From a virus (lineage: Duplodnaviria; Heunggongvirae; Uroviricota; Caudoviricetes), in IMG/VR virus record IMGVR_UViG_2537561977_000033: 45,340 nt of DNA; one strand, given 5' to 3'. Positions 4,083-40,585 of the stretch are shown in pieces. Numbering within the stretch: the first letter of the stretch is position 1; the number at the start of each line of letters is the position of its first letter. The notes beneath the pieces were generated by a model, which worked only from the letters and a program-made list of their open reading frames with translations, was not told the origin of the DNA and searched no databases. A program made the translations under genes and the position numbers.

Positions 4083-4658
4083 CTACGGCAGTGCTGGCCA
4101 TTCAATATCCTGTGCAGTTGACGTATCAACACGGTTCAGCAATACCCGATACTTTTTCCATGCTTCCAGCAACGAGATTTCTTCCTCCGTTGCAATTTCC
4201 AGATCTGCAGCATCCTGAAGCGGCGCAATATGCTCACTGGCTACCTGCATCAGGTTGTTTTTTGTTTCTTCCGCCTCCCGGATCCGGAACAGTTTTTCTG
4301 CTTCCGTATCCTTCACCCAGGCTGTGCCGTTCCACTTCTGAAACTCCCCTTCCGGCGATAACCAGGTAACATTTTCCGGTAACGGACCGAGTTCAGAAAT
4401 AAATAACGCGTCGCCGGAAGCCACGTCATAAACCGTTTTACCCCGATGATCTTCAACGAGATGCCACGATGACTCATCACTGTTGAAAACAGCCACGAAG
4501 CCAGCCGGAATATCTGGCGGTGCAATATCGGTACTGTTTGCTGGCAGACCTGTATGAGGCGGAATATATGCATCACCTTCACCAATAAATTCATTAGTTC
4601 CGGCCAGCAGATTATAAATTTTTATGGTCCGTGGTTGTTCACTCATTCTGAATGCCAT
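4083..4658 (-). CDS. tfa: tail fiber assembly protein, 191 aa
   Basis: Immediately downstream of the fiber gene with start/stop overlap at 4656-4660; sequence matches remembered TfaQ/lambda Tfa. Confidence 0.8.
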
Positions 4659-6313: not shown

Positions 6314-6335
6314 TACTGAGCTGGACTATCCCCTT
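6141..6335. repeat. two direct copies (~64 bp each, ~130 bp apart) of the conserved tail-fiber recombination box
   Basis: 6141-6204 and 6271-6335 align with about 15 mismatches and one 1-nt length difference; both encode ...[11 protein letters not shown]...ATPKAVKAA in different frames. Confidence 0.8.
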
Positions 6336-7736: not shown

Positions 7737-7741
7737 CCCAC

Positions 7742-7768
7742 AAAAAAGCCCGCCTGAACCGGCGGGCT
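7742..7768 (-). terminator. rho-independent terminator downstream of lom
   Basis: On the minus strand GCCCGCCGGTTCAGGCGGGC followed by TTTTTT. Confidence 0.5.
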
Positions 7769-7794
7769 GTCATAACACTGTGTTACCTGGCTAA

Positions 7795-8394
7795 TCAGAA
7801 TTTATAACCGACACCCACGATGAAACTGTTGGTACGCCAGTCACCGCTGCCGGAGCCTTCATAAGCGACGTCAACGGCCACGGATTCGGTCGGGTTAAAC
7901 TGCACGCCAGCTCCCCACGCCAGAGACGTGTTGCTGTGGCGACCGTCATCACTTCCGGTCAGCACATCGTGCGTTTTCCCCTTGTTGTCAGTTACGCGGA
8001 TATAATCTCCGGAGAAAGTCGAAACACGGCTGTAAGCCATACCCGCCATCGCATACGCGCTGAACCATTCATTCACGCGCACAGACGGCCCCGCCATCAC
8101 GCTGAACCAGCGGTTACGCACGGAATCTTCATGCCAGCGGGTATCGCTGTAATGCGTTTTTTGCTCATCTTCAGCGTTGGCATAACTGAATGACGTAATC
8201 AGCCCCAGCGTGTCCGTAAACTCATAACGGTATTTCACGTTAATCCCGTTCAGATTATCGCTGCCGGGAGCGTTCGTACGGGCATGAAGATACCCTGCGC
8301 TCAGTGTGGCCTGCTGCTCAGACGCCCATGCAGGCGCACCGAATACGGCCAGACAAATGGCTGCGGACAAAATGGCGGCATAAAGTTTACGCAT
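7795..8394 (-). CDS. lom: Lom outer-membrane protein (Ail/Lom family), 199 aa, with signal peptide
   Basis: [24 protein letters not shown]... ends in a beta-barrel motif ...GVGYKF; lambda Lom position between J and stf. Confidence 0.8.
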
Positions 8395-8418
8395 AATTAC
8401 CTCTCGCTTTTCTGCAAT

Positions 8419-8441
8419 AAAAAGGCGCCATTTCTGGCGCC
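8419..8441 (-). terminator. candidate rho-independent terminator after J
   Basis: Minus strand GGCGCCAGAAATGGCGCC followed by TTTTT. Confidence 0.4.
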
Positions 8442-8460
8442 CGTATATGGGTTATAAAAT

Positions 8461-11400
8461 TCAGCTGATACTGATGCCTGCGGTGGCTTTCTTCATCACC
8501 ACAACCAGCAAATCGCTGATACTTGCTGTGGGATACCAGTCATTTACCAGCCATGCTGACACCGAAAACTCCAGCGTCATGTGGCCGTGACCAGCTGGCA
8601 TATCAATAACACCACTGTAAATCAGCGTATTATCCAGCGCGGTACGGTTATAAATTTCAGCACCATTTTTCTTCACTATCAGGCGGCATGACGAATAAAT
8701 ATCGTTATTCTCCCGCTCATGTTTAGCGCCGCAGAATGCCACCGCTGGAATAACAATTTGCCTGTCAAAAGGCTGATCGTCATAAATCCTGACGGTAATG
8801 GTCCCTGATGGCCACCGCTCCGGTGCCCGGGAGTCCCGCGGGAAAGCCTTACCCACTGTTTTGACAATATCGCCTTCAATCTGATTGGCTGACAGTTTCC
8901 CCTTAATCTGACAGTTCTCATTAATCGTGACGTTGTTGAGCGTCCCGGAGTTCGCGTTCACGTTACCGCTGATATCGGCATTTTTCGCCGTCAGCCGTCC
9001 GCCAGGTGTCAGGGAAAATGCCGGAGGATTACCGCCGCTGGTAATGGTGGGGGCCGTCAGGCGTTTCAGGAACACGTCGTTCATGAATATCTGATCGCCC
9101 TGACCAACAAACATCGGTTTTGTGTTGCCATTCGCAGGATTAACCATCGCAATCCTGTCCGCCGCCAGCAGCACCTGACTCTGCATGCCGTCAGGGGTGT
9201 TCTCAATACCGGCACCAATACCCGCGATATAAAGGCGTCCGTCCTGCATCTGCTGCAGCTTCACAGCCCACATGCTGTTCAGGTTATTATTTGTATCAAC
9301 CTGAACCTTCTGTATCTGCTGAATTGCCGCACTCTGGTCTTCCAGTTTCTTATTGACGGTCTGCGTGATTTCATTGCTGACATCCGTAATGGACGTCCTG
9401 ATTTCAGCCAGGTCAGGCGCAAGCTGACCGTTATCAATCTGCGTCCACAGCTCCTGAGCCAGATGGGTTTTCCCTATCTCGCCTTTGAAAAAATCCAGAT
9501 AGCCGGATGCATCATCACTCGGCTGACCAACAGCCTCCACGAATGCCGATTTGCCAACGGTGTTCACACTGCGAACGTAAAAATAATAATCATGGCCCGG
9601 CCTGATATTGATACTGGCGGCTATCCAGTACAGCGCCGTGCCAAGATAGCGGGCTGTGGTTTCAACCTGCCTGATATCGGTAATCCGCTTTTCCGAGAAC
9701 CAGAACTCAAACTGTACCGTCGGGTCATAAACGGCAAGATGCGGCGTGGCGGTTATCTGAAAATAGCCCGGCGTCAGCTCAATCCGCGACGGCGCTGCCG
9801 GTGCGGCAATCCGGAACGATACCGACGCCGGATCGCCCTGCTGCCCCCACGCATTTACTGCCCGGACTGTCAGCCTGTAGTTCCCCAGCGCCAGTTGTGT
9901 GAAGCGGTAAGTGGTTTCCGTCGTCCGGGCCGTGCTGACCAGCCGCTCACTGCCGTCATCCGCTGTTACGGTCAGACGGAGCAGGAAGCTCACGCCCTTC
10001 ACCACCTTCGGCGTGTCCCAGCGCGCCAGCACCTGATATTCCCCGCTGTCTGCGGTGACTTCGGCAGTCAGGTGCTGCACCGCTGGCGGCGTGACACCAT
10101 TCACCGTGCCGCTCTGGTCGCCGTCAAAGTGCGCCCCGTTATCCACGATGGCCTCTTTTTCCGGTACATGCTGCACGGCGGTGATGGCATACGTGCCGTC
10201 ATCGTTCTCACGGATACTCACGCAGCGGAACAGGCGCTGGCGCAGCGTCGGCAGCTTCAGCCCCCATACGCTGTATCCGGCAACGCCGTCAGGAACACGG
10301 CTCACTTTTACCTTCACGCCGTCGGTGACGGACTGGACCTCCACGCTGACCGGATTGCCTCTTCCGTCAACCAGGCTTATCAGCGTGGTACCGGAGGATG
10401 GCAGCGTGATTTCACGGTCGAGCGTCAGCGTCCGGGTCTGGCTGTTCACCGCCAGCACGCGCCCGCCGGTACTGATACCGGCATAGTCATCATCGCAGAT
10501 TTCAATGACATCGCCCGGTACATGGCGAAGCCCTTCAGCACCCACGCTGAAGTCCACGGTCTGCGTTTCCAGCAGTTCCGTTTTAATCAGCCACAGCCCG
10601 GCGCGGTGTGCCTGCCCCCGGCTGGTACAGCCAAAGGCATCCATCTTCGTGACGTTACGACCGTAACGGGCAATGGCCTGCGTATCTTCAACAAGCTCTG
10701 TCGCCGTCTCCCAGCCGTTGTTCGGGTCAATCCAGTTCACCTCAACGGCATTATGGCGGTCCTTCAGGGCGCTGAAGCTGTAGCGGAACGGCGCGCCATC
10801 ATCCGGCATCACCACATTACTGCGGTTATAGGTCCACGCCTTATCCGACGGTCGGTCCTGCACGAACGTCAGCGTCTGCCCGTTCCATACCGGCATACAG
10901 CGCATCGCCGAGCAGAAATCACTGAGCACATCCCACGCCTTACGCTGTGTGGTCAGGTACGCATTACAGGTGATGCGCGGCTCCGTGCCGCCAAAGCCGT
11001 CCGGCACTGACTGGTCGCAGTACTGGCCGATGACATACAGCGCCCATTTATCCACATCCGTCGCACCAAGACGTTTCCCCATGCCGTAGCGCGGATGGGT
11101 CAGCATATCCCACAGACACCAGGCCATGTTGTTGCTGTATGCCGGTTTAAACGTTCCGTCCCAGATACCGCTGTATTGCCGCGTCTGCGGGTTATAGTTC
11201 GACGGCACCTGCAGAATGCGCCCGCGAAGATGATAATTACGACTCACCTGCTGGCTGCCGAACTGCTCCGAGTCCACCTGCACGCCGACCAGTGCCGTGT
11301 TCGGGTAGCCCTGTTTCACATCGATGATTTCGGTGTATGACGACCAGAGCGTTTTGTTCTGCAGCTGGTCTGTGGTGCTGTCCGGCGTCATCCTGCGCAT

Positions 11401-11940
11401 CCGGATACTGAACGGGCGCGGCGGCAGGTTATCCACCACCACAGAGGCCAGGTACTGCGAGGTGGTTTTGCCTTTAATGGTGATGTCTTTTTCCGTCACC
11501 CAGCCACCGTTACGTTGTATCTGAACCAGCAGGCGGACTTCCGATGGATTCCTGTCCCCCTTTGAGGTGGTTTCCACCAGTGCCTGCACACCGAAGGTAA
11601 AGCGCAGACGGTCGATGTTTGCAGACGTGATGGTCCGGGTGATCGGCGTGTCGTATTTCACTTCCGTACCGAGCACCGTCTCGGATCCGGAGGATTCAAA
11701 TCCCTCCGGCGGTGTCTGCTCCTGCTCACCGGCCCGGAACACCACCGTGACACCGGATATGTTGGTATTCCCCTCAGTGTCCAGCACCGGCGTACTGTTC
11801 AGCAGCACGCTTTTTAAGCCATCCACCGGACCTTCAACCGGCCCTTCGCTGATGGCATCGATCACACTCAGCAACTGCGTGGACTTCAGGTTGTCCTTCG
11901 CTTCGCGCGGGGTATGCCCCTTACTGCTGCCTTTACCCAT
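8461..11940 (-). CDS. J: tail tip / host specificity protein J, 1159 aa, with a C-terminal domain unlike lambda J
   Basis: First ~900 aa near-identical to remembered lambda J ([24 protein letters not shown]...); last ~250 aa diverge. Confidence 0.9.
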
Positions 11941-11999
11941 TCCTCACGCTCCATAAACGACAAAACCGCCCGCAGGCGGTTTCACATAAACATTTTGCA

Positions 12000-12671
12000 T
12001 CAGCGACCAATCACCACAACCTGACCACCGTCCCCTTCGTCTGCCGTGCTGATCTCCTGAGAAACCACACGTGACCCCACGCGCATTTCACCGTACAGAA
12101 CGGGCAGAACATTGCCCTGGGCAACCATGTTATCCAGTGAGGAGAAATAGGTGTTTTGTTTGCCGTTATCCGTTGTCTGTGTACGGGGAGTTCTGGTTTT
12201 CGGTGCCAGCATCTGCGCCACACCACCGAGCACCATACTGGCACCGAGAGAAAACAGGATGCCGGTCATACCACCGGCCCCAATGGCTGCCCCCCATGCT
12301 GCAAGGGTGGCTCCGGCGGTAAAGAATGATCCGGCAATGGCGGCAGCTCCCAGGACAATCTGGAATACGCCCCCTGACTTGGCTCCGGCGACTCTGGGAA
12401 CAATATGAATCACAGCGCCGTCAGGCAGAGTCTCATGTAACTGCGCCGTTAACCCGGACGTGCTGACGTCCCGCCCGGCAATCCGTACCTGATACCAGCC
12501 GTCGCTCAGTTTCTGACGAAACGCCGGGAGCTGTGTGGCCAGTGCGCGGATGGCTTCAGCCCCCGTTTTCACACGAAGGTCGATGCGGCGACCAAATCGT
12601 TGTAAATCCCCGTAAAGGCAGATGCGCGCCATGCCCGGTGACGCCAGAGGGAGTGTGTGCGTCGCTGCCAT
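12000..12671 (-). CDS. I: tail assembly protein I, 223 aa
   Basis: MAATHTLPLASPGMARICLYGDLQRFGRRIDLRV... matches lambda I. Confidence 0.85.
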   Translation of the reverse strand: MAATHTLPLASPGMARICLYGDLQRFGRRIDLRVKTGAEAIRALATQLPAFRQKLSDGWYQVRIAGRDVSTSGLTAQLHETLPDGAVIHIVPRVAGAKSGGVFQIVLGAAAIAGSFFTAGATLAAWGAAIGAGGMTGILFSLGASMVLGGVAQMLAPKTRTPRTQTTDNGKQNTYFSSLDNMVAQGNVLPVLYGEMRVGSRVVSQEISTADEGDGGQVVVIGR

Positions 12672-13312
12672 TTGTCGGTATACCTCTCTCGTTTGCTCAG
12701 TTGTTCAGGAATATGGTGCAGCAGCTCGCCATCACCACAGTAAATGGCGGCATGATTCGGCACCGATGAACCAAAACAGCACAGCAGCACATCGCCCGGT
12801 TGTGCTGATGACAACGGCACCTGATACAGCCCTGTGGCCTCCAGATTATCCAGATAGAGATTCTGACCGTGACGCCACCAGTCATCCTCGCGATGAAAAT
12901 CCGGCATCTCAATCCCCGCCAGATGATAAGCATCCCGGAACAGCGTGTAACAGTCCGTCACCCCGTGTTCAAAGCGCCGCCCGGTAAGATGTGGCACACA
13001 GCGGAACTTGTGAATCGCCCCCCGGCAGACCAGCCACCACGGCAAATCACTCTGCACCTGCAGCCGCCGGTCAGCCTCACTCAGCCAGGGCAGACCACCG
13101 GGGTGGCTGTGGACCAGCGCCACAATCTCACCCTGCATTTCTGCCTGCAGCCAGTCCTCCGGCGACATCCGGAAATAATCCTCTGGCTCACCGGAGATAT
13201 TCACGCAGGGAAAATATCTTTCCCCCTCCGGCGTGCTTACCACGAAGCCGCACGACTCCGCTGGCGCACATCGCCGGGCGTGCGCCAGAATCGCTGATTC
13301 TGTCTGTGTCAT
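12569..13312 (-). CDS. K: tail assembly protein K (JAMM/MPN plus NlpC/P60-like), 247 aa; lambda annotation may start at an internal Met
   Basis: MTQTESAILAHARRCAPAESCGF...HSHPGGLPWLSEAD (HxH...S..D JAMM-like motif) matches lambda K; overlaps I as in lambda. Confidence 0.85.
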   Translation of the reverse strand: MTQTESAILAHARRCAPAESCGFVVSTPEGERYFPCVNISGEPEDYFRMSPEDWLQAEMQGEIVALVHSHPGGLPWLSEADRRLQVQSDLPWWLVCRGAIHKFRCVPHLTGRRFEHGVTDCYTLFRDAYHLAGIEMPDFHREDDWWRHGQNLYLDNLEATGLYQVPLSSAQPGDVLLCCFGSSVPNHAAIYCGDGELLHHIPEQLSKRERYTDKWQRRTHSLWRHRAWRASAFTGIYNDLVAASTFV

Positions 13313-13317
13313 GGGAT

Positions 13318-14015
13318 TTACTGCGAAAGTTTGTTAATGGAAAGGAAGCCGCCAAAGTTGCCGACGTTATTGCGGAACTTACAACCGCTCAGGCATTTGC
13401 TGCATTTATCCTTCGTGATATCGGACGTTGGCTGGTCATATTCATCCGCGACCGCCGGACCGTGATAACCGCACTCATCGCCGCGATAGGTCCAGGTGCA
13501 GGTGTTGGCCAGCATGATACGTCCCGGAAAAACAGCGCCATCCGTTTCCGTCGGCGTGGACAGTACAAAGGAGGCACTCACCGCGCTCAGTTCGCTGCAC
13601 TGCTCAATGCGCCAGCGGCTGATCACCTCCTGCTCCGGATCGGCATAACTGTTTCCGTTGACGAAGTTCACCGCATCCAGAAAACGGGCGTAAACCTTAC
13701 GCCGGACCACCGTTCCGCCGACCAGGCTCTGCATATCTTCCGCCATCCCGGTGACCATACCGTACAGGTTAGAAACCGTCAGCGTGGGGCGCGTACTGGT
13801 GCCTTTGCCATTCAGTTCAAAACCGCTCCCCTGAATGGGATACGGCTGATACTGTCGCCCCTGCCAGGTGACCGGCTCACCTTTTTCGTTCTGCTCATTA
13901 CAGAAAAATAACGTTCTCCACCGACCTCTGTCAGATCGATTTCCCAGAGCACCACGCTGGCCGACTGCTCCGCACGGGTGCATTCATTCAGTGTTTCCTG
14001 CCGGATATCCTGCAT
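13318..14015 (-). pseudogene. L: tail protein L with a -1 frameshift in a T-run
   Basis: N-terminal 37 aa (MQDIRQETLNECTRAEQSASVVLWEIDLTEVGGERYF) and the rest (FFCNEQNEKGEPVTWQ...KLSQ) sit in different frames; the junction is TATTTTTCTG on the coding strand, around 13904-13908. Confidence 0.75.
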
Positions 14016-14344
14016 CAGTTCACCACCTGTTTAAACTCTGCGCTGAACTCAACACGCAACATACTGACCTGCGACGACCATTTTGCGCAGATCACCTTTA
14101 TCTGCCTGTAACCATAAGGCGGCGTCCACAGAAAGGCCTTCCAGCCCCCGTGCTCAGCCAGAAACGACTCCAGCGCCGTGGCCTCCTCACGGGAGACAGA
14201 CAGCGTCACGCTGTACGTTTTCAGGTCAGCGTTCAGCCCGGCAGGCGCACGCTGGGAATAGCCATCACCAAAGCGCACCTCCCTGACGGAAGGAGCCGAT
14301 GTCACATCCATCCCGGGTTTCACTTTCCAGCGGAAGGTTTTCAT
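14015..14344 (-). CDS. M: tail protein M, 109 aa
   Basis: MKTFRWKVKPGMDV...RVEFSAEFKQVVN matches lambda M. Confidence 0.85.
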   Translation of the reverse strand: MKTFRWKVKPGMDVTSAPSVREVRFGDGYSQRAPAGLNADLKTYSVTLSVSREEATALESFLAEHGGWKAFLWTPPYGYRQIKVICAKWSSQVSMLRVEFSAEFKQVVN

Positions 14345-15159
14345 CGTCCACCTCCGGAGAACAGACCACCATCGCGCATCTGTGCCTGGATTTCATCACG
14401 GGCACCCTTGCGGGCCATGTCATACACCGCCTTCATCATCTGTGGACCTGGCAGACCATTCGTACCGTCGTTCTGAATCACCACGTTGTTGTTCTGCTCA
14501 AACCTGATACCCTCTGAACGCCGCATTTGCGCCGGACTTCCGGTGCCACCGACATAACCGCCGGTGGCATAGCCGCGCATCAGCCGGTAGAGATTTCCCA
14601 CGCCAATCCGGCTGGTTGCCTCCTTCGTGAAGACAAATTCACCACGGTGAACAATCCCCGCTGGCTCATATTTGCCGCCGGTTCCCGTAAATCCTCCGGT
14701 TGCAAAATGGAATTTCGCCGCAGCTGCCTGAATGGCTGTACCGCCTGACGCTGATGCGCCGCCACCAACAGCCCCGCCAATGGCGCTGCCAATACTCCCG
14801 ACAATCCCCACCATTGCCTGCTTAAGCAGAATTTCTGTCATCATGGACAGCACGGAACGGGTGAAGCTGCGCCAGTTCTGCTCACTGCTGGTCAGCATCG
14901 CTGCCATATTCTGCGCAATACCATCAAAGGTCTGCGTGGCTGCACTTTTAACCTGCAACATACTGTCCGTGGCACTCTCTTTCCACTCGCTCCAGCCGGA
15001 CCTGAGGCCTGCCATCCAGCTCCCGCGAAGCAGGTCTTCAGCCGCCCAGGTCTTTTTCTGCTCTGACATGACGTTATTCAGCGCCAGAGGATTATCGCCA
15101 TACTGTTCCTTCAGGCGCTGTTCCGTGGCTTCCCGTTCTGCCTGCCGGTCAGTCAGCCC
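14341..15159 (-). pseudogene. H: tape measure protein H, C-terminal ~270 codons only; 5' end removed at the IS boundary
   Basis: Open frame runs without stops from the IS left end at 15159 down to the stop at 14341; the supplied ORF (first Met at 15069) covers part of it. Lambda H is about 850 aa. Confidence 0.8.
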
Positions 15160-16453
15160 CTGAGGAATCCCCAGAAAACAAGACAGGCATAGTGAGATGT
15201 GATCTAATTGATTGTGCTAACAATTTCAAGGAGATCACCACTATGCCTGCACGTTCATTATGCCAAAATTTCCTTAACAACATACTGGCCCCTTTGCATC
15301 TTTACCGTCAAAAATCACTGATTGACGCAACTAATGCTGTAATAAATGGCGCTTCCCTCACACTTACCAGTATCGGGCGTCATTTAACCGGTACGGCATC
15401 AGTTAAAAACAAAATAAAGCGGGTGGATCGACTGTTGGGGAATCGACATTTGCAAAATGAGGTTTCCACCATTTTTCAGCGAATTACCCAAAAGATTACG
15501 CGGGGAATGTCTCGTGTTGTGATACTCATTGACTGGAGTGCTTATCATGCCTCTCGTTTTCAGCTTTTGCGGGCAAGCCTGGCATGTGACGGGCGTTCTT
15601 TACCGTTGATGAGTTGTGTCGTTCCATCATCACAGACAGCGAATGCAGATGTACATGAGCGTTTTCTGGAATCGCTTGCTGAGTGCTTTTCCCCCGGGAC
15701 TGATGTCATTGTTATTACAGATGCCGGTTTTCAGGGGCGATGGTTCCAACAGCTCCGCTCCCGTGGCTGGACCTATATTTGCCGGGTACTGGGCAATCAT
15801 TATTACAATGTTGGTAATGGCTGGGAAAAGGTGTCGGACTCAGGCACAAAAGCATCAACGACAGCAATTTATTTAGGTGAAGGCCTGCTGGGTCGAGATA
15901 AAAATGCACAACATGAAGGGCATTTTTATCTTTATAAAAGTAAGCCTAAAGGTCGTAGATTTAAACGCTCGAAGGAAAGAGCAACCAGACCATCGGTGAC
16001 GGCTAAAGCTCGTACTGCCGGGAAATCACCATGGTTTATTTTCACAAACAGTACTGAGTTCTCGCCAAAACAGGTAATGAAATTATACAGCCGTAGAATG
16101 CAAATTGAGCAAAATTTCAGGGATGAAAAAAATCCTCGCTGGGGATTTGGACTACGGTTTGGTGCCAGTCATTCATCCGGGCGGGTCACGGTATTGAGTC
16201 TGATCGCAACATTAGCCAGTATCATTATGTGGTTAAGCGGTTTCAGCCTGGAAAACAAAGGGATACATCATAAATATCAGGCAAATACAGTGAAGCACAG
16301 GCGAGTCATCTCGTTATTAAAACTGGCGGAGAATGTGATTCGACATTCTCCACTCATACTAAACACACTGTCACTTGACGCAGGGCTGAAAGTTCTACAG
16401 CAACGGTATACCAATATGATAATGGTTTACTAAATTTTCTGGGGATCCCTCAG
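15160..16453 (+). mobile_element. IS4-family (IS10-like) insertion sequence, ~1.29 kb, no flanking direct repeat
   Basis: Terminal inverted repeats CTGAGGAATCCCCAGAAAA (15160-15178) and TTTTCTGGGGATCCCTCAG (16435-16453) resemble IS10 ends (CTGA.GATCCCC); flanking 9-mers differ (AGTCAGCCC vs GGCAAATCC). Confidence 0.8.
15192..16433 (+). CDS. IS4-family DDE transposase, 413 aa, IS10 transposase-like
   Basis: Motifs KRVDRLLGNRHLQNE, YKSKPKGRRFKRS, YSRRMQIEQNFRDEK and HKYQANTVKHRRV parallel remembered IS10 transposase; partial identity only. Confidence 0.85.
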   Translation: MRCDLIDCANNFKEITTMPARSLCQNFLNNILAPLHLYRQKSLIDATNAVINGASLTLTSIGRHLTGTASVKNKIKRVDRLLGNRHLQNEVSTIFQRITQKITRGMSRVVILIDWSAYHASRFQLLRASLACDGRSLPLMSCVVPSSQTANADVHERFLESLAECFSPGTDVIVITDAGFQGRWFQQLRSRGWTYICRVLGNHYYNVGNGWEKVSDSGTKASTTAIYLGEGLLGRDKNAQHEGHFYLYKSKPKGRRFKRSKERATRPSVTAKARTAGKSPWFIFTNSTEFSPKQVMKLYSRRMQIEQNFRDEKNPRWGFGLRFGASHSSGRVTVLSLIATLASIIMWLSGFSLENKGIHHKYQANTVKHRRVISLLKLAENVIRHSPLILNTLSLDAGLKVLQQRYTNMIMVY

Positions 16454-16695
16454 GGCAAATCCCCCCGGTTAACTTTGATTCTGGCCTGCGGATTTTTGAC
16501 CGTGGCCCTTTTCAGCCTGGCCCTTTCCTTTACCAGTTTCCGGCGTACCTTTGTCTCACGGGCAACCTGTGACGCAGACTGCGATATCGCGGATGAAGCA
16601 ACGCGGTTAATGGCCATTGCGGCGGCACCGGGCACCGCCGTTTTGCTGATACGGCTGAGGTTTTCAACGGCCTGCTCAAGACCTTTTATGGCCAT
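16454..16695 (-). pseudogene. Z: tail protein Z, N-terminal ~80 codons, truncated at the IS
   Basis: MAIKGLEQAVENLSRISKTAVPGAAAMAINRVASS...KVNRGDLP matches the lambda Z N-terminus; the frame runs into the IS right end. Confidence 0.7.
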
Positions 16696-16706
16696 ACATC
16701 CCCCTT

Positions 16707-17060
16707 TCAGCGGCGACGGTTAACGGCAGGCGGTACGCCCCGTCCAAGCCAGAGATGACAACTTCCGCCATCATCCGGCGAAACCCGATCTACCCAGAAA
16801 TTTTCCTCACCGATGGTCAGCGTGTCTCCACGCCGCAGCTGCCGCACCTCATCAGTCCGGACAAACAGGGACGGGCTGGAGCCTTCAACGCGCACGCCCT
16901 GTCCGGCATAGCTGATATTTTCAGGGTCATCAAAAACACCACGTATCACCGCACCTGACTGCTCACCGGATGTCATGGTGGCTGACGTTCCCATGTACCC
17001 GCGTATCGTTTCATCGGCGCGGGCAATGGCAGCATCGAACAGGTTATCGAAATCAGCCAC
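16707..17060 (-). CDS. FII: head-tail joining protein FII, 117 aa
   Basis: MADFDNLFDAAIARADETIRGYMGTSA... essentially identical to lambda FII from memory. Confidence 0.85.
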   Translation of the reverse strand: MADFDNLFDAAIARADETIRGYMGTSATMTSGEQSGAVIRGVFDDPENISYAGQGVRVEGSSPSLFVRTDEVRQLRRGDTLTIGEENFWVDRVSPDDGGSCHLWLGRGVPPAVNRRR

Positions 17061-17071
17061 AGCGCCTCCCG

Positions 17072-17470
17072 TTATTGCATTCTGGCCAGGCCGCGCTCTG
17101 TCATTTCGGCTGCCACACCGGCAGAGACACGAAACGCCGTTCCCGGCAGCACAAATGCCACAGGTTCATCCCGCGTGGCGTGAAGTGCATCAGTATGCAG
17201 CTTCACCAGTGCCACGACCGTGACCAGTTCAGACGTATCCAGAATCACGGTATCCGGCTGCGCTGATCCCACCTCATTTTCATGTCCGGTCAGCACATTT
17301 TCCCGGCTGAGAGGGGTGTCCTGACCGGCAGTTTCATCCGTGTCATCAAGCTCCTCTTCCAGCTCTGCCACACGGAGCGCCAGTTCTTCTTTCGTCCCCG
17401 TCAGGCTGACATCACGGTTCAGTTGTTCACCCAGCGAGCGGAGACGGGCAATCAGTTCATCTTTCGTCAT
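17072..17470 (-). CDS. FI: head protein FI, 132 aa from the internal Met MTKDELIARL...
   Basis: ORF 17072-17509 contains the lambda FI sequence starting at MTKDEL. Confidence 0.8.
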   Translation of the reverse strand: MTKDELIARLRSLGEQLNRDVSLTGTKEELALRVAELEEELDDTDETAGQDTPLSRENVLTGHENEVGSAQPDTVILDTSELVTVVALVKLHTDALHATRDEPVAFVLPGTAFRVSAGVAAEMTERGLARMQ

Positions 17471-17511
17471 GGACTCCTCCACAGAGAGAAAATGGCCCCG
17501 AAGGGCCATGA

Positions 17512-18537
17512 TTACGCCAGTTGAACGGCCACGAACTCATCAGGATCAGCCAGCAGCATCAGCGGTGCTGACTGAATCATGGTGAACTCTCGCGCCGGAT
17601 CGCCGGATGTCTTCCAGTTTTTCGGATAACGGGGAGACGCATTAATACCCTCACTCAATGCATCCGCATCCTGAATACAGCCATAGGTGCGCAGACCGCG
17701 TGCATGAGTGTTACCCAGCACCATCGTGTTGTCCGGCAGGAAGTTCTTTTTGACGCCGTTTTCCACGTACTGTCCGGAATACACGACGATGGCCACATCG
17801 CCATACATCCCCTTATAGGACACCGCTTTACCCAGGTCTTTCACCGCTGTCTCCAGCTCGGAATGAGAGCCACGACGGGTATCCAGCTTCTCCCTGACGG
17901 CTTTGAAGGAACGGAACAGCGCCCAGCCTTTCGGATCGAACACGATGATATTCACCACACCGCTGGCGTTCAGCGCGTAGGCTTCGATATCGTCGGTCGG
18001 GTCATACGTGGACTTGTCACGCTTGCTCCACTCCGTGCCGCCGGACTGCGTGATGTTATTCTCCTCACTGCGGCCCATATCCACCTCAACCGGATCGAAG
18101 GCTTCACCGGTCATGGTGTATTTGCCCTTAAGCACGGCAGAAACTGCCTGCATCTCTTCGACCTGAGCAATGGCCAGCTCTTCGTCACGCATGTTCTGCA
18201 TGATGATGCGACGGCGGCGGTAAGCTGGGTCCGCCAGATTCTGCGGATCTTCATCCGGCAGGCGACGCAGGGTCATCTGCGGATTCACTTCATGCTTCGG
18301 CTTGACATATCCCGGCGTAAATTCAGAGGTGGAGCCGCCACGGGAACGGATAACCTCACCGGAAACAATCGGCGAAACGTACAGCGCCATGTTTACCAGT
18401 CCCGGAATTTGTGAGAGATAGACTTTCTCCGTGGTGAAGGGATAGCTCTCACGGAAAAAGAGACGCAGAAACAGCGGATCAAACTTAAATTTCTGCTCAT
18501 TTGCCGCCAGCAGCTGGGCGGTTGTGTATATCGACAT
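17512..18537 (-). CDS. E: major capsid protein E, 341 aa
   Basis: MSIYTTAQLLAANEQKFKFDPLFLRLFFRESYPF... matches lambda gpE. Confidence 0.9.
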   Translation of the reverse strand: MSIYTTAQLLAANEQKFKFDPLFLRLFFRESYPFTTEKVYLSQIPGLVNMALYVSPIVSGEVIRSRGGSTSEFTPGYVKPKHEVNPQMTLRRLPDEDPQNLADPAYRRRRIIMQNMRDEELAIAQVEEMQAVSAVLKGKYTMTGEAFDPVEVDMGRSEENNITQSGGTEWSKRDKSTYDPTDDIEAYALNASGVVNIIVFDPKGWALFRSFKAVREKLDTRRGSHSELETAVKDLGKAVSYKGMYGDVAIVVYSGQYVENGVKKNFLPDNTMVLGNTHARGLRTYGCIQDADALSEGINASPRYPKNWKTSGDPAREFTMIQSAPLMLLADPDEFVAVQLA

Positions 18538-18591
18538 AAAAAATCCCGTAAAAAAAGCCGCACAGGCGGCCTTTAGTGATGAAGGGTAAAG

Positions 18592-18924
18592 TTAAACGAT
18601 GCTGATTGCCGTTCCGGCAAACGCGGTCCGTTTTTTCGTCTCGTCGCTGGCAGCCTCCGGCCAGAGCACATCCTCATAACGGAACGTGCCGGACTTGTAG
18701 AACGTCAGTGTGGTGCTGGTCTGGTCAGCAGCAACTGCAAGAATGCCAACGGCAGCACCGTCGGTGGTGCCATCCCACGCAACCAGCTTACGGGTGGAGG
18801 TGTCCAGCATCAGCGGGGTCATTGCAGGCGCTTTCGCACTCAATCCGCCGGGCGCGGTTGCGGTATGAGCCGGGTCACTGTTGCCCAGCGGCTGGTAATG
18901 GGTAAAGGTTTCTTTGCTCGTCAT
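18592..18924 (-). CDS. D: head decoration protein D, 110 aa
   Basis: [40 protein letters not shown]... matches lambda gpD; the ORF has 2 extra N-terminal codons. Confidence 0.85.
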
Positions 18925-18933
18925 AAACATCCC

Positions 18934-20233
18934 TTACACTGGTGTGTTCAGCAAATCGTTAACGGCATCAGATGCCGGGTTACCTGCAGCCAGCGGTGCC
19001 GGTGCCCCCTGCATCAGACGATCCAGCGCAGTGTCACTGCGCGCCTGTGCACTCTGTGGTGCTGCGGCCAGAATGCGGCGGGCCGTTTCCACGGTCATAC
19101 CGGGGGTTTCTGCCAGCACGCGGGCCTGTTCTTCGCGTCCGTGAGCCTCCTCACAGTTGAGGATCCCCATAATGCGGCTGTTTTCTGCCGCAACCGCAGC
19201 GGTGATCTGCGCGTTCACGTCCGGCTGCGCCGCGCTGGCGTTTTCGCCCTCCGTCGCTGGCACCACGTCAGTAACGTCAGCCTGCGAAGCAGTGGCTGAA
19301 ACAGTTGTTGATTGAGTCTCTTTGGTCATTCGCCCTCCTGAGAGACGGGATTTACGTGCATCCAGTGCATCACGCATAACGGTGATCGCATCGGTGCTGT
19401 TGACAAGTTCATCAGCCAGTCCGGCATCAATGGCCTCCTGACCGCTGTACACTGCAGCCTCGGTATCCAGCACAGCCTGCACGGACAGGCCGGTATATGC
19501 CGACACCTTCTGCGCAAACATCCGGCGGGTTGCGTCCATCCGGGACTGCAGTGTCTCCCGGACGTCATCCGGAAGATGGCTGTAGGGGTTGCCATCCACC
19601 TTATGGCTGCCGCTGTAAATCAGCGTGATTTCCACACCCTGTTTCTCCAGCGCAGCACCGTAATTACTGTGAGCCATCATGACGCCGATGGAGCCTGTCC
19701 GGGCGGTCTGCGTGACCAGACGCCGGGAGGCGGCACTGGCAAGCAACTGACCTGCACTGCAGTTCATGTCGTTGGCAAGCGCCCATACCGGTTTTATGTC
19801 ACGCACACGGGCGATGATGTCAGCGCAGTCAAATGCCCCCGCCACCATCCCGCCGGGCGTGTCCATATCGAGCAGAATGCCGTCCACCATCGGATCGCTG
19901 GCAGCCTGTTGCAGACGGGCGATAATGCCGTTGTAACCGGTCATCCCCGAGTACGGCTGCAGCGCCCGCGTCCGGCTGACCAGCGTGCCGGACACCGGCA
20001 GCACGGCGATGCCGTTCATGACCTGATAACTGCGGGCCTGTCGTGGTCCGTCATCATCACCGGATAATGCCAGCGTCGCGAGTGCCTCCTGGGCAGTCAG
20101 GCTGTCGCCGGACACCGCATCCGTCAGGCGGCTGATCCCAAGCTGGCCTGCAAGCGCACAAAAGAAAACCCGCGCATAGGCGGGTTCAAGCATCAGCGGC
20201 TCATTAAAGGCCATGCTGGCAATATGCGGGAGA

Positions 20234-20253
<20 letters not shown>
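18934..20253 (-). CDS. C: head protease/scaffold region protein C, 439 aa, GTG start (Nu3 scaffold is nested in its 3' part in lambda)
   Basis: Lambda C sequence starts at (V)TAELRNLPHIASMAFNEPLML; GTG at 20251-20253 preceded by AGGAGGAG; the supplied ORF extends upstream into the B overlap. Confidence 0.85.
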
Positions 20254-23934
<3,681 letters not shown>

Positions 23935-23960
<26 letters not shown>

Positions 23961-24480: not shown

Positions 24481-24700
24481 TGCTCATTCCACGGACAAAA
24501 ACAGAGAAAGGAAACGACAGAGGCCAAAAAGCTCGCTTTCAGCACCTGTCGTTTCCTTTCTTTTCAGGGGGTATTTTAAATAAAAACATTAAGTTACGAC
24601 GAAGAAGAACGGAAACACCTTAAACCGGAAAATTTTCATAAATAGCGAAAACCCGCGAGGTCGCCGCCCCGTAACCTGTCGGATCGCCGGAAAGGACCCG
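24481..24700 (-). other. cos packaging site (cosB, cosN, cosQ) in circularly permuted prophage context
   Basis: 24658-24669 AGGTCGCCGCCC is the reverse complement of the lambda cohesive end GGGCGGCGACCT; the segment up to Nu1 mirrors the lambda left end and 24670-24700 the lambda right end (...CCGACAGGTTACG). Confidence 0.8.
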
Positions 24701-24868
24701 CAAAATGATAATAATTATCATCTACATGTCACAACGTGCATCTACGCCATCAAACCACGTCAAATAATCAATTATGACGCAGGTATCGTATTAATTGATC
24801 TGCATCAACTTAACGTAAAAACAACTTCAGACAATACAAATCAGCGACACTGAATACGGGGCAACCTC

Positions 24869-25063
24869 ATGTCAACGAAGAACAGAACCCGCAGAACAAC
24901 AACCCGCAACATCCGCTTTCCTAACCAAATGATTGAACAAATTAACATCGCTCTTGAGCAAAAAGGGTCCGGGAATTTCTCAGCCTGGGTCATTGAAGCC
25001 TGCCGTCGGAGACTAACGTCAGAAAAGAGAGCATATACATCAATCCAGAGTGATGATGGATGA
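24869..25063 (+). CDS. small prophage protein, 64 aa, YnfO/YlcI-like (DUF3950) by recollection
   Basis: MSTKNRTRRTTTRNIRFPNQMIEQINIALEQKGSGNFSAWVIEACRRRL; basic N-terminus. Confidence 0.4.
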   Translation: MSTKNRTRRTTTRNIRFPNQMIEQINIALEQKGSGNFSAWVIEACRRRLTSEKRAYTSIQSDDG

Positions 25064-25313
25064 ACATCCCGGTTTCTTTACCTTCCCTCCCTCCCCGCAC
25101 AGAACTGGCGAGCGTGAGGGACCAATATGTGAGCCATAAATGCCTTATCTTCAGAAATGCAGTTGGTATCCGAATAGAACGATATTGTAAATTCACCTAA
25201 ATACGAGGCATTGCTGTAGTTGAATTGCAGTACTGTATTAGCCTGACAGTGACAGAATACGATATTGACTCTGTCACTTGTGAAATGGTCAGAATGGTTA
25301 GCAGTTATGGTGA

Positions 25314-25520
25314 TCAGTCAACCAACAGGGAATAATCCTTCGTATTCTTATCGTGCTTTACTAACGCGGCCTCAATTGCCCTGAATGCTTCCAGAGATAC
25401 TTGATGTTCTATACATGCAATTACAACATCCGGGTAACCCATCGAAATGGTGCTATTAAGCATAGTTTTTACACGAACCTGCTCCTGGGAGGGGGTATCA
25501 ATGTATTGATCTTTATGCAT
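25314..25520 (-). CDS. hypothetical protein, 68 aa
   Basis: ORF only; no family recognised. Confidence 0.25.
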
Positions 25521-25814
25521 TTTGTCGCTCCATTCGTTTGCTCTTCACTTGCGGCTAAAAATATAACGTCAAATCACTCAGCATGAAAGAGTGAAAGTTT
25601 CAGCGCGTTTCCCTTACATAATCTGTCGTTTGTATTCTCTTCAGGCATACCGGAAAGACTAGGTATTGTCACACAACCAATACCATCGACAATCGAGATT
25701 TATATCTATTCGGTAATGTTTAAATATAACAAAACCCCGTAAAACGAGGTTTATGGGTAATTTGTATTGTTGAATAGCATCTGATGAGAAATTGATGCTA
25801 ATACTATAAACATA

Positions 25815-25988
25815 CTAGATTAAATCAATCTTGATATCATAGCTTTCAAGACCAGTCATTTTTTCCGTGCAGTAAACTGGATACTGGTAACTTCTTTCCC
25901 GGTCTTTTTCTTAAGCTCAATGATTTTTTTGTTATATATTCAGAAATATCTGCTTCTGTTTTTGTTTTAACTCTTCAATGTTCATCAT
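25815..25988 (-). pseudogene. gnsB: GnsA/GnsB-family gene remnant with two frame changes
   Basis: Three frames give MMNIEELKQ / KTEADISEYITKK / IIELKKKTGKEVTSIQFTARKKMTGLESYDIKIDLI, together resembling GnsA/B (MNIEELKKQAETEI...NKNTGKEV...FTAREKMTGLESYDVKI); breaks lie at A-runs. Confidence 0.45.
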
Positions 25989-26340: not shown

Positions 26341-26656
26341 ACTACCACTGCTGGTTCAGAGTTAAAAAAACTATGATTTTTTCATGATGTTACCGTAGTA
26401 TGTGAGTATCCATCGAATAGACACCAAGCAAAAAAGCTCCCGAAGGAGCCTTCATTTTCACTTTTTTAAATCCAACGACAGACGGCTGGCATTTAAGTAT
26501 TGTGAAATATTATCAAATGTAATCATCATTGATTTACAAAAGATACATTTTGCCCCGAAAGGATTCATGTCAGAAACATCAAAAGATGATGTTCTATACT
26601 GGGAACCATGACAACACGGGCATCTAAAGTGAATATGGTTTGTAATATTGTCTACC

Positions 26657-26869
26657 TCAAAGCGCCACTACATGAACAGCGGCAGGACCTTTAGGTCCGT
26701 TCTCAATACCAAATTCAACTTCCTGATTCTCAGTTAATGTTTTGAAATCGTTGCTCTGAATTGCTGAGAAATGGACAAACACATCTTTGCTGCCATCTTT
26801 CGGCGTGATGAAACCAAAACCTTTTTCAGGGTTAAACCATTTCACTAAACCAGTCATTTTGTTAGACAT
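26657..26869 (-). CDS. cspI: cold-shock protein (CspA family), 70 aa
   Basis: [38 protein letters not shown]... with RNP1/RNP2 motifs; matches my memory of CspI. Confidence 0.8.
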
Positions 26870-27230
26870 AATTATTACCTTTTGAAGAAATTAGCCCTTG
26901 GGCAGAATGGTCCGAAAAAAATATCAGAGAGAAAAACCAACAAGGAAATCTCAAGAGGTACAAATAATAAAATTATAACAATGACTGCTTCAGATAAATT
27001 TGTAACAAACCAGAACACCATTAACGCATGATTAACCACCCATAGCAAGGATTACTTTTGTAAAGAAAAACACAGCAATGAAAGAATAGCTTTATTTATT
27101 AATAAAACGTGTCATTCTGATTAAGACCTTTTATCTTACCCTTAAGATTTCAGGAATTTTGGCTCATGGAAGAGTCCTTTTTATTCAAATTTTACATTCC
27201 GCGATGTAAATGTTCCGATTTAATATTACC

Positions 27231-28253
<1,023 letters not shown>

Positions 28254-29175: not shown

Positions 29176-29537
29176 TTGATTTTATTAGTAACAAGTATTT
29201 TTATATTTTAATAATATATTTAAAGCAGATAATAAAAAACCCGCCTGAGCGGGTTTGAGATTGTGGTGCTTTTTGTGGGAGTCATCCACTTACGCACTTT
29301 GTTTTGCCATGCCAGCAGTTAGCTTCTGCTGTAAAACTATTCATGCAGCAAACCTGCACTTCACCACAATGGTTAGCATACTTTTCCTGATTAAGATTTT
29401 GCCAAATATGCTAGCCATTGTTTCATGTATTGGACCTCCTTACTTTTTATTAAAGAGATCCAATATTCACTACTCTGTCCGTATCTCTACTCAGGCATCA
29501 GCCTTCTTCGTTATCGTATACAGACGAGCGATGAATT

Positions 29538-29753
29538 TTAATCAGTAATGATGACATTTGCTGCTGCAGGACCTTTAGCACCACTCTCTATAGAGAAGGT
29601 AACCTTTTGACCTTCAAATAAGGTTCGATAATTATCATTCTGAATCGCAGAAAAATGCACAAACACATCTTTACTACCATCAACAGGAGAAATAAAGCCG
29701 AAACCTTTATCAGCGTTAAACCATTTTACTAAACCAGTCATTTTATTTGACAT
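29538..29753 (-). CDS. cspB: cold-shock protein (CspA family), 71 aa
   Basis: [51 protein letters not shown]... matches my memory of CspB. Confidence 0.8.
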
Positions 29754-30052
29754 TCTACATTCCTTAACTTGAGCCTTTCGGCATAAATGGTTTGCATAAC
29801 AGAAACGACTTCGTACTTAATTGGAGAGACTCAAAGAAGGAATAAGTGAATAACACCTGAAATGAGAACTGCTTTAGTAAACTACTTCGTATATCGTCTG
29901 TTCTTCAAACCGACGCAATCATTAACGCATAGTTGAACATATGAAGCAATGTTTATTTTAGACATCCAGCCGTCTTCAACCCCATCAAAAACTATAGCTT
30001 TCTTCAGGAACGTGTGTATAGTGCGCCAAGTTATCAGTATTAAGGAATTTTT

Positions 30053-35129: not shown

Positions 35130-36790
35130 GTCACTTTTGTGGGGACAGTCCACAAAACTGCCAACTTCCGCTTCTTGCTCTTAGCGGACATTAGCATAGG
35201 CTATTTACCATAACGCCTCATTACGCGCACCGCCCAGACTGACTCAGCGCGTTTCTGGCATATCCCCGGTAAAACAAGTAACAACCCCCCCGAAAATGAA
35301 CACCAGAAACGCGACTTAAGAATCTACCCTATGAATGGATATGCACTCAACCGAATCGATCTTGGTTTCAATCTATTTTATCGGGATCAGGCTTCTTTTT
35401 AGGTAACTTCGGGGGCTTAACTTGCTGATGACTTTGCGTTCGGCGCGTAAGCCAGGGATGGTCAGCTTTAGATTTAACATAGTATTTTGAGCGTAAATCA
35501 ATACGGGCATTATCCACTCGTTCATGGACACTCTTTTCATCATCCAGTGGTATAGGCTCCGGGCCATCAACATACTTTTCCCAGCCCAGCGCTTTCCCGT
35601 CATACAGAACGTTAATTTCACCGTCAAAGTTCTCACATACAGTAACAACCGAATGCCTAAGTCGATATCCCCGGCCCTCACTGCGTACCTGAAACGCACT
35701 GCTTTTGTACTGGAAAGTGAGATTTTTAGACAGAACGCGCTTCGCCTGTAGGCTGAAGATATAACCCAGTTCCTCTTCAGAATGGTGCACATCAAGATGA
35801 GCATTATCAGTAGTACGAGGCGACGTAGCGAACCGGTTGTTATAGGCTTCAATAAAGGTCGGCAACCATGCATTTGCTGTTTCAATATCACTGATATTCT
35901 GAAGCCGCATTTCTTTGACCAGCCTGTCCTGTAGTGTCTGATTGGCGCGCTCTACCCGCCCTTTTGCCTGCGGGCTGTTGGCATGGATTGGCTCGATGCC
36001 CAGTGTCTTTATCGCACGAGTGAACTGGGTCAGCTCACCTTCCCGCTCTGGGTTATTTACCCTGAATATACTGTGTCTATCAGAGTAGAGAGCGAGCGGT
36101 ACGCCATGATCATTAAGGTAACCCCGGAGGGTTTCCATGTAAGCCCGGGTTGTTTCAGCAGGCACAAAACGCAACGCCATCAACGCACTGGTGGCATCAT
36201 CAATGAAAACGATCAGTGTACATCTGGGGCCTCGATTTTCAAACCAGTCATGCGGTGAGCCATCAATCTGGATCAGTTCACCGTAAGATGGTCGTCGCAT
36301 GCGGCGTTGATATATACGGGCAATTTTACGACGGCGTTCACGCCATAACCCCTCTTCTATCATCCACTTTCTGAGAGTTTCAACGGATAAAGATAAACCG
36401 TGTATCTCGCGCAATTTTTCGCACGCAAACGTAGGTCCAAAATCAGCGTAACGGCCTTTGAGGAGTGAAATTACTGTTGCTCTGAATTCAGTAGAAAAGG
36501 AATTATTAGGACGCTTTCCACGTCGGTGGGAAACCAGACCAGAAGGCCCTTCATTTCTATACCGTTGCACCAGACGTTTAACCTGCCGAATAGAAATGCC
36601 AATGCGTGCCGCAGCTTGTTCCTGAGTAATATGTCGATTAATTGACTCCTGAATAATCTGAAGTCGGTGGAGTTCCTTATGACTCATCGTAACAGTCTCT
36701 TTGATCATGAAAAATCCCCCAGAGAATTGTCTGGGGACATTTTAGAATGGTTCAAAGGGGACATTACAGCTTGGTGTTAACAATAGCCTG
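35130..36790 (-). mobile_element. insertion sequence carrying an integrase-fold DDE transposase (IS481/ISNCY-like); boundaries approximate
   Basis: Transposase gene 35368-36708; palindromic GGGGACA-containing sequences on both sides (35136-35160; 36711-36770); exact ends and target duplication not resolved. Confidence 0.4.
35368..36708 (-). CDS. DDE transposase with N-terminal HTH and rve integrase core, 446 aa
   Basis: MIKETVTMSHKELHRLQIIQESINRHITQEQAAARIGISIRQVKRL... (HTH), then candidate catalytic D (IQIDGSPHDWF), D (LYSDRHSIF) and E (AKGRVERANQTLQDRL). Confidence 0.8.
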   Translation of the reverse strand: MIKETVTMSHKELHRLQIIQESINRHITQEQAAARIGISIRQVKRLVQRYRNEGPSGLVSHRRGKRPNNSFSTEFRATVISLLKGRYADFGPTFACEKLREIHGLSLSVETLRKWMIEEGLWRERRRKIARIYQRRMRRPSYGELIQIDGSPHDWFENRGPRCTLIVFIDDATSALMALRFVPAETTRAYMETLRGYLNDHGVPLALYSDRHSIFRVNNPEREGELTQFTRAIKTLGIEPIHANSPQAKGRVERANQTLQDRLVKEMRLQNISDIETANAWLPTFIEAYNNRFATSPRTTDNAHLDVHHSEEELGYIFSLQAKRVLSKNLTFQYKSSAFQVRSEGRGYRLRHSVVTVCENFDGEINVLYDGKALGWEKYVDGPEPIPLDDEKSVHERVDNARIDLRSKYYVKSKADHPWLTRRTQSHQQVKPPKLPKKKPDPDKID

Positions 36791-37161
36791 CTTCTCCTTG
36801 CCTTCCGGCACTCGCGACAGATTATGTTTAGACGACTGTCGTAGCGACGTATTTCTCCGTCAGGTAATGACCAGATAAGGTCCGGATCAACCACAGCAGG
36901 TTTCTTCACCTTTGCCCTCGAGAGTTTTTTGCGGGCGTTTTGCCAGTCCTTACGCGCCTGTTCAGACGGGAATAACCCGTAACCAGAGCTGTATACATCG
37001 CCACTGGCAACCAGCTCTCTGGCCAGAACGCTCATCAGATATCTTGTTGCCCCAGTTTTAGCTTCCAGTTGTCGTAACGTCTCGCGCCCACTCTGGCGTA
37101 CGAGTTCCACCACCTGCCCTTTAATTTTTTCCCGCTCTTCTTGTGTAAAAACTTTTGCCAC
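36742..37161 (-). CDS. hypothetical protein of the early-right (replication) operon, 139 aa; 3' end probably altered by the IS
   Basis: Basic, Lys/Arg-rich; reading frame ends within ~40 bp of the transposase start. Confidence 0.3.
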   Translation of the reverse strand: MAKVFTQEEREKIKGQVVELVRQSGRETLRQLEAKTGATRYLMSVLARELVASGDVYSSGYGLFPSEQARKDWQNARKKLSRAKVKKPAVVDPDLIWSLPDGEIRRYDSRLNIICRECRKARRSRLLLTPSCNVPFEPF

Positions 37162-40532: not shown

Positions 40533-40585
40533 TTTCTGGTGACGTTTGGCGGTATCAGTTTTACTCCGTGACTGCTCTGCCGCCC
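40533..40585 (+). ncRNA. dicF: DicF small regulatory RNA (ftsZ-targeting), ~53 nt, followed by a T-run
   Basis: TTTCTGGTGACGTTTGGCGGTATCAGTTTTACTCCGTGACTGCTCTGCCGCCC matches the DicF sequence as I remember it; between the ydfB/C region and dicB. Confidence 0.8.

Follow-up and report, generated by a model that had tools for sequence, protein, structure and literature searches.

A sequence-intact lambda-type cos site, predicted to be functional, in a tail-defective Qin-family prophage

Introduction

In the cos region of lambda as described by Murialdo and Feiss, the R3 element of cosB covers bp 50-65. The contacts detected by NMR fall on bp 55-63 and packaging-defective substitutions were described at positions 56, 58 and 59 (PMC9026076; PMC4669245). 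Around position 53, a minor-groove contact by the wing of TerS has been proposed, 5′ of the major-groove contacts (PMC9026076). The distance between cosN and cosB is strictly required, and packaging is terminated only when a downstream cosQ-cosN is encountered (PMC9026076; PMC4669245). The helper-packaging assay of Feiss requires two prophages arranged in tandem (PMC4669245).

Defective prophages of E. coli O157 Sakai were shown to be excised, replicated and packaged, and some of them to be transferred via inter-prophage complementation or recombination (PMC2669165). In K-12, the cos/nu1 region of the DLP12 prophage is usable by lambda (PMC3945230). Finally, PICIs carry cos sites that are devoid of the lambda R sequences, the protein Rpp redirecting TerS to them (PMC9026076), and capsid-forming PICIs (cf-PICIs) build their own DNA-filled capsids and borrow only the tails of the helper (bioRxiv 10.1101/2025.02.11.637232).

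Here, we analysed a viral DNA of 45,340 nucleotides (Caudoviricetes; IMG/VR record IMGVR_UViG_2537561977_000033), hereafter called the window. We report that its single cos site very probably belongs to a Qin-family lambdoid prophage endowed with a lambda-type packaging and head module, and that the site is predicted to be functional.

Results

On its minus strand, window 24481-24705 can be aligned position by position with the lambda cos junction, reconstituted by joining the right and left ends of NC_001416 (Table 1). The dodecamer AGGTCGCCGCCC, which is the complement of the left cohesive end GGGCGGCGACCT of lambda, occurs once on the plus strand, and a dodecamer search of the whole window detected no cos site other than the one at 24658-24669. 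On one side, lambda bp 1-8219 correspond to the minus strand from 24669 to 16453 with 98.3% identity; on the other, lambda 48502-48094 corresponds to window 24670-25078 with 96% identity. This long, continuous lambda homology around the dodecamer excludes a chance motif. From lambda 48487 through bp 52, a segment that spans the cohesive end, both nick-site flanks and the cosN-R3 spacer, the match is 100% and free of indels, and the cosQ-to-cosN spacing is that of lambda with zero indels. Nicks would be expected at 24669/24670 on the top strand and at 24657/24658 on the bottom strand.

The organisation of cosB is also that of lambda, with the element order R3-I1-R2 (inverted)-R1 and a Nu1 start at the equivalent of bp 191 in common. 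Within the nominal R3, the sole change is C53T (window 24617); bp 54-65, including the TerS contact bases 55-63, are identical to lambda and the cosN-R3 distance is unaltered. The 16-mer of R2, CTGTCGTTTCCTTTCT, and that of R1, which is direct, are complements of each other. The I1 region shows two changes, A73G and T102C, both common among natural phage isolates, and its IHF-consensus-like 13-mers at 24579-24596, which match WATCAANNNNTTR with one or two mismatches, are the same as in lambda and make up a predicted IHF site. Outside R3, the differences from lambda are A48471G, T48486C, A73G, T102C, delG138 and A188G, and none of them falls within the defined elements. With C53T, this gives seven small differences, which lie outside the defined contact bases and are each known from other phages. 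Altogether, all the features that define a lambda-type complex cos at the sequence level are present; the site is sequence-intact and its function is predicted.

Table 1. Features of the cos region and of the surrounding prophage, with their coordinates in the window.
Feature	Coordinates	Strand	Remarks
cosQ (GGGTCCT on minus strand), packaging-termination element	24693-24699	-	identical to lambda 48473-48479
cosN cohesive-end dodecamer (GGGCGGCGACCT on minus strand)	24658-24669	-	single exact match
cosB R3 (lambda bp 50-65), critical TerS binding site	24605-24620	-	one change, C53T
I1 region, IHF bending site between R3 and R2	24562-24604	-	lambda bp 74-101 identical
cosB R2 (lambda bp 109-124), inverted relative to R3 and R1	24546-24561	+	16-mer CTGTCGTTTCCTTTCT as in lambda
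cosB R1 (lambda bp 151-166)	24505-24520	-	16-mer as in lambda
Nu1 (small terminase; nohA in the annotation of relatives), 181 aa	23935-24480	-	97.8% identical to lambda Nu1
A (large terminase), 641 aa	22035-23960	-	98.8% identical to lambda gpA over full length, without internal stop
W, B (portal), C/Nu3, D, E (major capsid), FI, FII	16707-22038	-	complete head and head-completion genes
Z′, cut-off tail gene, first 81 of 192 aa	16453-16695	-	tblastn; lambda homology ends at bp 8219
ISEc60 (IS4 family)	15158-16455	+	transposase ORF 15192-16433 matches NF033591
′H, tape-measure remnant, aa 581-853	14344-15162	-	tblastn
L, tail-tip gene, -1 frameshift	13318-14017	-	one base lost in homopolymer run 13904-13908
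stf (side tail fibre), split in two overlapping ORFs	6162-7736 and 4658-6313 (span 4658-7736)	-	
'IS009' RNA family inside tfaQ	4117-4315	-	Rfam, above gathering score
IS1, intact, 768 bp, between ydfK and pinQ	2537-3304		8-bp target duplication AACGTGTA
gnsB, frameshifted	~25818-25974		
cspA-type thermoregulator 5′ leaders, upstream of cspB and cspI	29522-29914; 26630-27014	-	Rfam, above gathering score
rzpQ (Rz-like spanin gene), frameshifted	27231-27727	-	T7 run ~27641-27650, compared with K-12 and PhiR42_1
ISEsa1 (IS1202/ISNCY family) transposase	35368-36708		between flxA/ydfW and DUF977 gene
DicF sRNA	40534-40585	+	Rfam, above gathering score
Whole Qin-family lambdoid prophage	1273-45340	-	attR side by ydfJ, int at right end of window

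The packaging and head genes that follow the cos site were compared with those of lambda by tblastn and codon by codon. Nu1, A, W, B, C/Nu3, D, E, FI and FII all have the lambda length and 97-99% amino acid identity, reaching 98.5-99% for W and FII, and this comparison found no internal stop in the ORFs from Nu1 to FII. Nu1, whose ATG is at 24480, differs from its lambda counterpart by K48R, A75T, L132I and R153W only. Its residues 1-47, which hold the winged HTH (recognition helix 17-24, wing 31-39), are those of lambda, so that a lambda packaging specificity is to be expected. With a dN/dS of 0.14 relative to lambda for the packaging and head genes, Nu1 to FII bear no sign of decay. More broadly, the proteins of the window are 97-100% identical to named lambda or Qin proteins.

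These observations bear out the structural description that an earlier note, drawn up from the letters of this DNA, had put forward: a lambda-like cosN on the plus strand with cosB and cosQ flanks, directly upstream of Nu1-A, and intact terminase, portal and capsid genes. The interval that it gave, 24481-24700, brackets the whole cos accurately. It had also named mutations in the cosN nick sites or in R3 as what would speak against an intact site. On exact alignment, the nick sites are unchanged, whereas the nominal R3 does carry C53T, outside the contact segment.

The prophage that harbours the cos site is collinear with Qin of K-12, with E. coli 1297KP and with phage PhiR42_1. On its left, ydfJ occupies window 1-1284 (99.8% identity to K-12) and prophage homology runs from ~1273; on its right, the window ends with int, which adjoins rspB in relatives. 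This places the element at the ydfJ/rspB locus where Qin is integrated. Rightward of cos come a ynfO-like gene, cspI, rzpQ, rrrQ, ydfR, essQ, cspB, cspF and ydfT (Q), then ydfU, rem and hokD and, beyond, relBE, flxA, dicC, dicA, dicF, dicB, ydfD, an exonuclease gene, xis and int. The dic immunity region, the relBE/hokD/csp genes and the essQ-rrrQ lysis genes of Qin are thus all found, and tblastn gave 100% identity to K-12 for DicA, DicC, DicB, RelBE, HokD, CspB/F/I, EssQ, YdfR and RrrQ. A tRNA scan revealed no tRNA gene in the window. Just right of cos, window 25031-25812 is a mosaic segment that resembles the right end of lambda (80% DNA identity to lambda 47579-48090) and contains a p79-like ORF (25317-25520; 78% amino acid identity to lambda), whereas K-12 Qin and PhiR42_1 have a ydfO/ybcV segment in its place.

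Collinearity with PhiR42_1 (PV340562; 48.7 kb; recorded host, ECOR13) extends over nearly all of the prophage, at 95-99% identity. The two have in common ISEsa1 and the immunity, replication, Q, lysis, cos and head modules, with int shared at 99.8%, O at 98.4%, and xis, DicA, DicC, Q, the holin and the lysozyme at 100%. PhiR42_1 differs by its intact Z, U, V, G, T, H, L, Rz and stf, and it is without ISEc60 and IS1. It also possesses, next to ISEsa1, ~2 kb (9491-11464) that are missing from the window (at 36797-36811) and from E. coli 1297KP; this segment encodes the C-terminus of DUF977/LygF, a SAM methyltransferase and small ORFs. Its absence beside ISEsa1 may correspond to an IS-adjacent deletion. 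From the GenBank records of the PhiR phages, which describe the phage genomes as complete and name a propagation host, we infer that these phages are viable; a literature search found no paper describing them. The near-isogeny of our prophage with the deposited PhiR42_1 suggests that Qin-type phages equipped with lambda heads and tails are still active and in circulation.

The lesions of the prophage are of several kinds. ISEc60, here 1.3 kb long, 99.8% identical to annotated ISEc60 copies and bordered by terminal inverted repeats of 21 nt (15158-15178 and 16435-16455), caps a deletion of 4,064 bp equivalent to lambda bp 8220-12283, which removed the C-terminus of Z, the whole of U, V, G and T, and the N-terminus of H. 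The Z′::ISEc60 junction was found in none of the 5,426 complete E. coli genomes and in none of the GTDB species representatives; the deletion is therefore probably strain-specific and recent. In L, aligning the DNA with that of lambda L and translating it in three frames showed that the reading frame breaks after ~37 codons, which could be a second tail defect or a sequencing error. As judged from its gene content, the prophage appears to be crippled mainly in tail assembly, through the Z-H deletion and the L frameshift. The Stf protein, which is encoded by a single ORF of 1025 aa in PhiR42_1, is split here; a split stf is also natural in lambda PaPa, by frameshift.

The prophage carries two other IS elements. 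IS1, with copies of its target duplication AACGTGTA at 2529-2536 and 3305-3312, sits at a ydfK-pin location that is non-essential. The ISEsa1 insertion, with a transposase ORF that forms one frame of 446 aa in the window and is split in PhiR42_1, was considered as a crippling insertion in the early region. We rejected this, as PhiR42_1 and ~500 complete E. coli genomes carry the same insertion; its presence in the apparently active PhiR42_1 points to a passenger rather than a disabling element. Thus, where the earlier note had described a prophage defective in its tail and further damaged by IS insertions, the tail defect holds, U, V, G and T being absent, Z kept only to aa 81 and H only from aa 581, and the deletion does lie under ISEc60. 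ISEsa1 does not count as a defect and IS1 lies in a non-essential spot. The frameshifts in L and rzpQ and the split stf are lesions that come in addition to those listed there.

Discussion

The cos site described here is one of many. Of 5,426 complete E. coli genomes, 4,590 (~85%) contain a match of any kind to a lambda-type cos, and in 3,985 the 225-bp cos is covered over at least 80% of its length. There is a median of 2 copies per genome and up to 8, with 37 places on plasmids. The arrangement of Qin lysis genes, cos, terminase and portal is itself present in ~470 genomes. Given that such cos sites occur in most E. coli genomes, the site is real but ordinary, of a kind already described, in a prophage family that is also known; what is specific to this copy is only its private, ISEc60-associated tail deletion.

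If the site functions as predicted, the sequence data are consistent with the following route, which is modelled on lambda biology. What the sequence establishes directly is the identity to lambda, the integrity of the genes and the relationship to deposited phages, whereas we infer cleavage, packaging, induction and tail donation. First, Nu1, with its lambda-identical DNA-binding domain, would position gpA to nick cosN 12 nt apart. The terminase complex would then stay on the cosB end and dock on the portal, and the DNA would be translocated in the order cosB, Nu1, A and onwards to J, leftward in the window from 24669, until a second cosQ-cosN is reached. Since one chromosomal cos cannot terminate packaging, mobilisation would need either excision with replication and concatemers, or a second cos in tandem (PMC4669245). 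By comparison with PhiR42_1, int, xis and O are intact, and the state of int and xis makes excision plausible. The excised circle would measure ~44.1 kb, which is 91% of the lambda length and inside the packaging range of lambda.

After excision and replication, the expected products would be 44-kb DNA-filled tailless heads, which would depend on the tails of another lambda-type phage, or on recombinational repair, to become infectious. Because W and FII are so close to those of lambda, lambda-type tails provided in trans should join these heads, by analogy with classical head-tail complementation. Packaging with the aid of a helper, which the earlier note had raised, is plausible in view of the size of the excised circle and of the O157 precedent. 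Among the findings that weigh against our preferred explanation, DicA is a 135-aa HTH protein in which no cleavage domain was detected, rzpQ is frameshifted, and ~2 kb are absent relative to PhiR42_1.

The main role of such a site in nature might also be another one. The prophage could act as a substrate for recombination and a store of modules, instead of being packaged whole, a proposition that we consider evenly balanced between true and false. Lambdoid phages entering the cell would swap the cos-Nu1-head region with the prophage, or repair it, and terminase cuts at the chromosomal cos would stimulate this exchange. Recombination of lambda with DLP12 of K-12 is indeed frequent, 10 of 19 junctions adjoined cos, and DLP12-nu1 recombinants are viable (PMC3945230). 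Here, 8.6 kb around cos are at 98% identity to lambda-type phages, and partners would be many, since so large a share of E. coli genomes hold at least one lambda-type cos. However, this role does not compete with a functional site: it is compatible with our preferred explanation and requires the same functional cos. In view of the O157 and DLP12 precedents, recombinational exchange would be at least as likely as whole-element packaging.

It is also conceivable that packaging starts from the integrated prophage. Its own terminase, or that of a helper, would cut the lone cos and package in situ, leftward through the tail genes and past ydfJ, and the outcome would be one-cos (docL-like) defective particles or chromosome breaks and not transfer of the element. 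Packaging is unidirectional from cosB and its termination needs a downstream cosQ-cosN (PMC4669245, PMC9026076), and this fits with the single cos of the window and with the mere 23.4 kb that separate it from the prophage end at ~1273. Nonetheless, the 99.8-100% identity of int and xis to those of PhiR42_1 makes excision plausible, and a second cos ~37-51 kb downstream would lie beyond the window. We regard in situ packaging as rather unlikely to be what happens. The behaviour of docL and one-cos particles is known from classical lambda work; our literature search on them returned nothing relevant.

A different question is how much of the damage is real. Some of the defects in L, rzpQ, gnsB and stf could be homopolymer sequencing errors, which would leave the Z-H deletion as the only genuine lesion. 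The L and rzpQ frameshifts are indeed each located within a mononucleotide run (Table 1). Against this, ~7.7 kb of head genes are free of frameshifts and gnsB is annotated as frameshifted in an independent genome too; the natural split of stf in lambda PaPa points the same way. On these grounds, we find it improbable that the Z-H deletion is the sole true damage.

The differences between this cos and that of lambda can be placed by comparison with 11 deposited lambda-like phages, whose cos regions we aligned with the window. PhiR29_1 carries every difference that separates the window from lambda and, from lambda 48443 to bp 200, each base of the window is either that of lambda or that of PhiR29_1. 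The upstream changes and delG138 are present in the environmental isolates Turner, Kati and Chlobot. Since delG138, located between R2 and R1, is found in 11 of the 11 natural isolates compared, it is the lambda reference that departs from the rest. Three of the deposited phage genomes, PhiR29_1, 2H10 and phiSTEC1575-Stx2k, also carry C53T, and the latter two have A73G and T102C as well. Moreover, at least 10 complete E. coli genomes contain exactly this 225-bp cos haplotype, at 100% identity.

C53T was examined as a disabling R3 mutation and rejected, as it lies outside bp 55-63 (PMC9026076) and is found in these deposited phages. A quantitative effect of C53T on cos may nevertheless exist, because C53 is conserved in all three R repeats of lambda (CGTTTCC in R3, R2 and R1) and stands at the proposed wing contact. 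Pushed further, this would mean that the site looks intact but is weakened: C53T, alone or together with A73G near I1, would lower TerS binding in a decaying relic whose packaging initiation would be poor or strictly IHF-dependent. R3 is the most critical R site, and CG to TA at bp 58 makes lambda IHF-dependent (PMC4669245, PMC9026076); in addition to the conservation of C53, the remnant Qin cos of K-12 is likewise altered in R3, by G54A. We nevertheless consider a weakened site very unlikely, given that position 53 is outside both the NMR contacts and the defective positions 56, 58 and 59 (PMC9026076), and given the occurrence of T53 in deposited phages and of the whole haplotype across E. 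coli genomes.

Finally, since only tail-shaft genes were lost while cos, terminase, head, W, FII, int, xis, replication and Q were kept, one may imagine this Qin variant as an accidental tail thief that spreads as DNA-filled heads tailed by co-resident or co-infecting lambda-type phages, which if true would resemble a capsid-forming PICI at prophage size; we deem this highly improbable, and the loss of the tail has the look of a recent, strain-specific deletion associated with an IS, and not of an evolved strategy.

A cos site of a Qin-family prophage, predicted to be functional, remains our preferred explanation. It is from this site that the packaging of a Qin-type prophage would originate, in a copy that is a few lesions short of a deposited phage, and the cryptic Qin of K-12 descends from an active lambda-headed phage. 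Our results suggest that such elements could supply incoming phages with modules for cos, terminase and head, or be complemented by these phages, both concepts being already established (PMC2669165, PMC3945230). Beyond annotation, the importance of the site is small.

Compared with known systems, the nearest is Qin of K-12, which occupies the same site (ydfJ flank, int on the rspB side) and has in common with the window dicA/dicC/dicF/dicB, relBE, hokD, rem, ydfU, ydfT (Q), cspB/F/I, essQ-ydfR-rrrQ-rzpQ, pinQ and tfaQ, the proteins being mostly 100% identical. K-12 Qin is without O, its intQ is broken and it has lost ~18.3 kb that extend from A into stf, most of which is gone (equivalent to window 5613-23952), whereas the window copy retains the terminase and the head genes, most of the tail-tip genes, int, xis and O. 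In K-12 (NC_000913, ~1,636,545), cosN, cosQ, R2 and R1 are exact and R3 has G54A instead of C53T, but this cos is fused to a truncated nohA and there is no large terminase. The prophage pool of O157 Sakai (Asadulghani et al. 2009, PMC2669165) consists, as here, of lambdoid prophages damaged by IS elements and deletions; its mobility was shown experimentally (PMC2669165), whereas that of the element in the window is putative. Last, cos-type PICIs and cf-PICIs are chromosomal and helper-dependent and have lambda-like cosQ and cosN (PMC6739421, PMC9026076, bioRxiv 10.1101/2025.02.11.637232). A PICI or satellite identity was considered for the element and rejected: unlike PICIs, it possesses a full lambda cosB (R3-I1-R2-R1), its own Nu1/A terminase, lysis and tail-tip genes together with remnants of the tail operon, and a phage-sized length of 44 kb.
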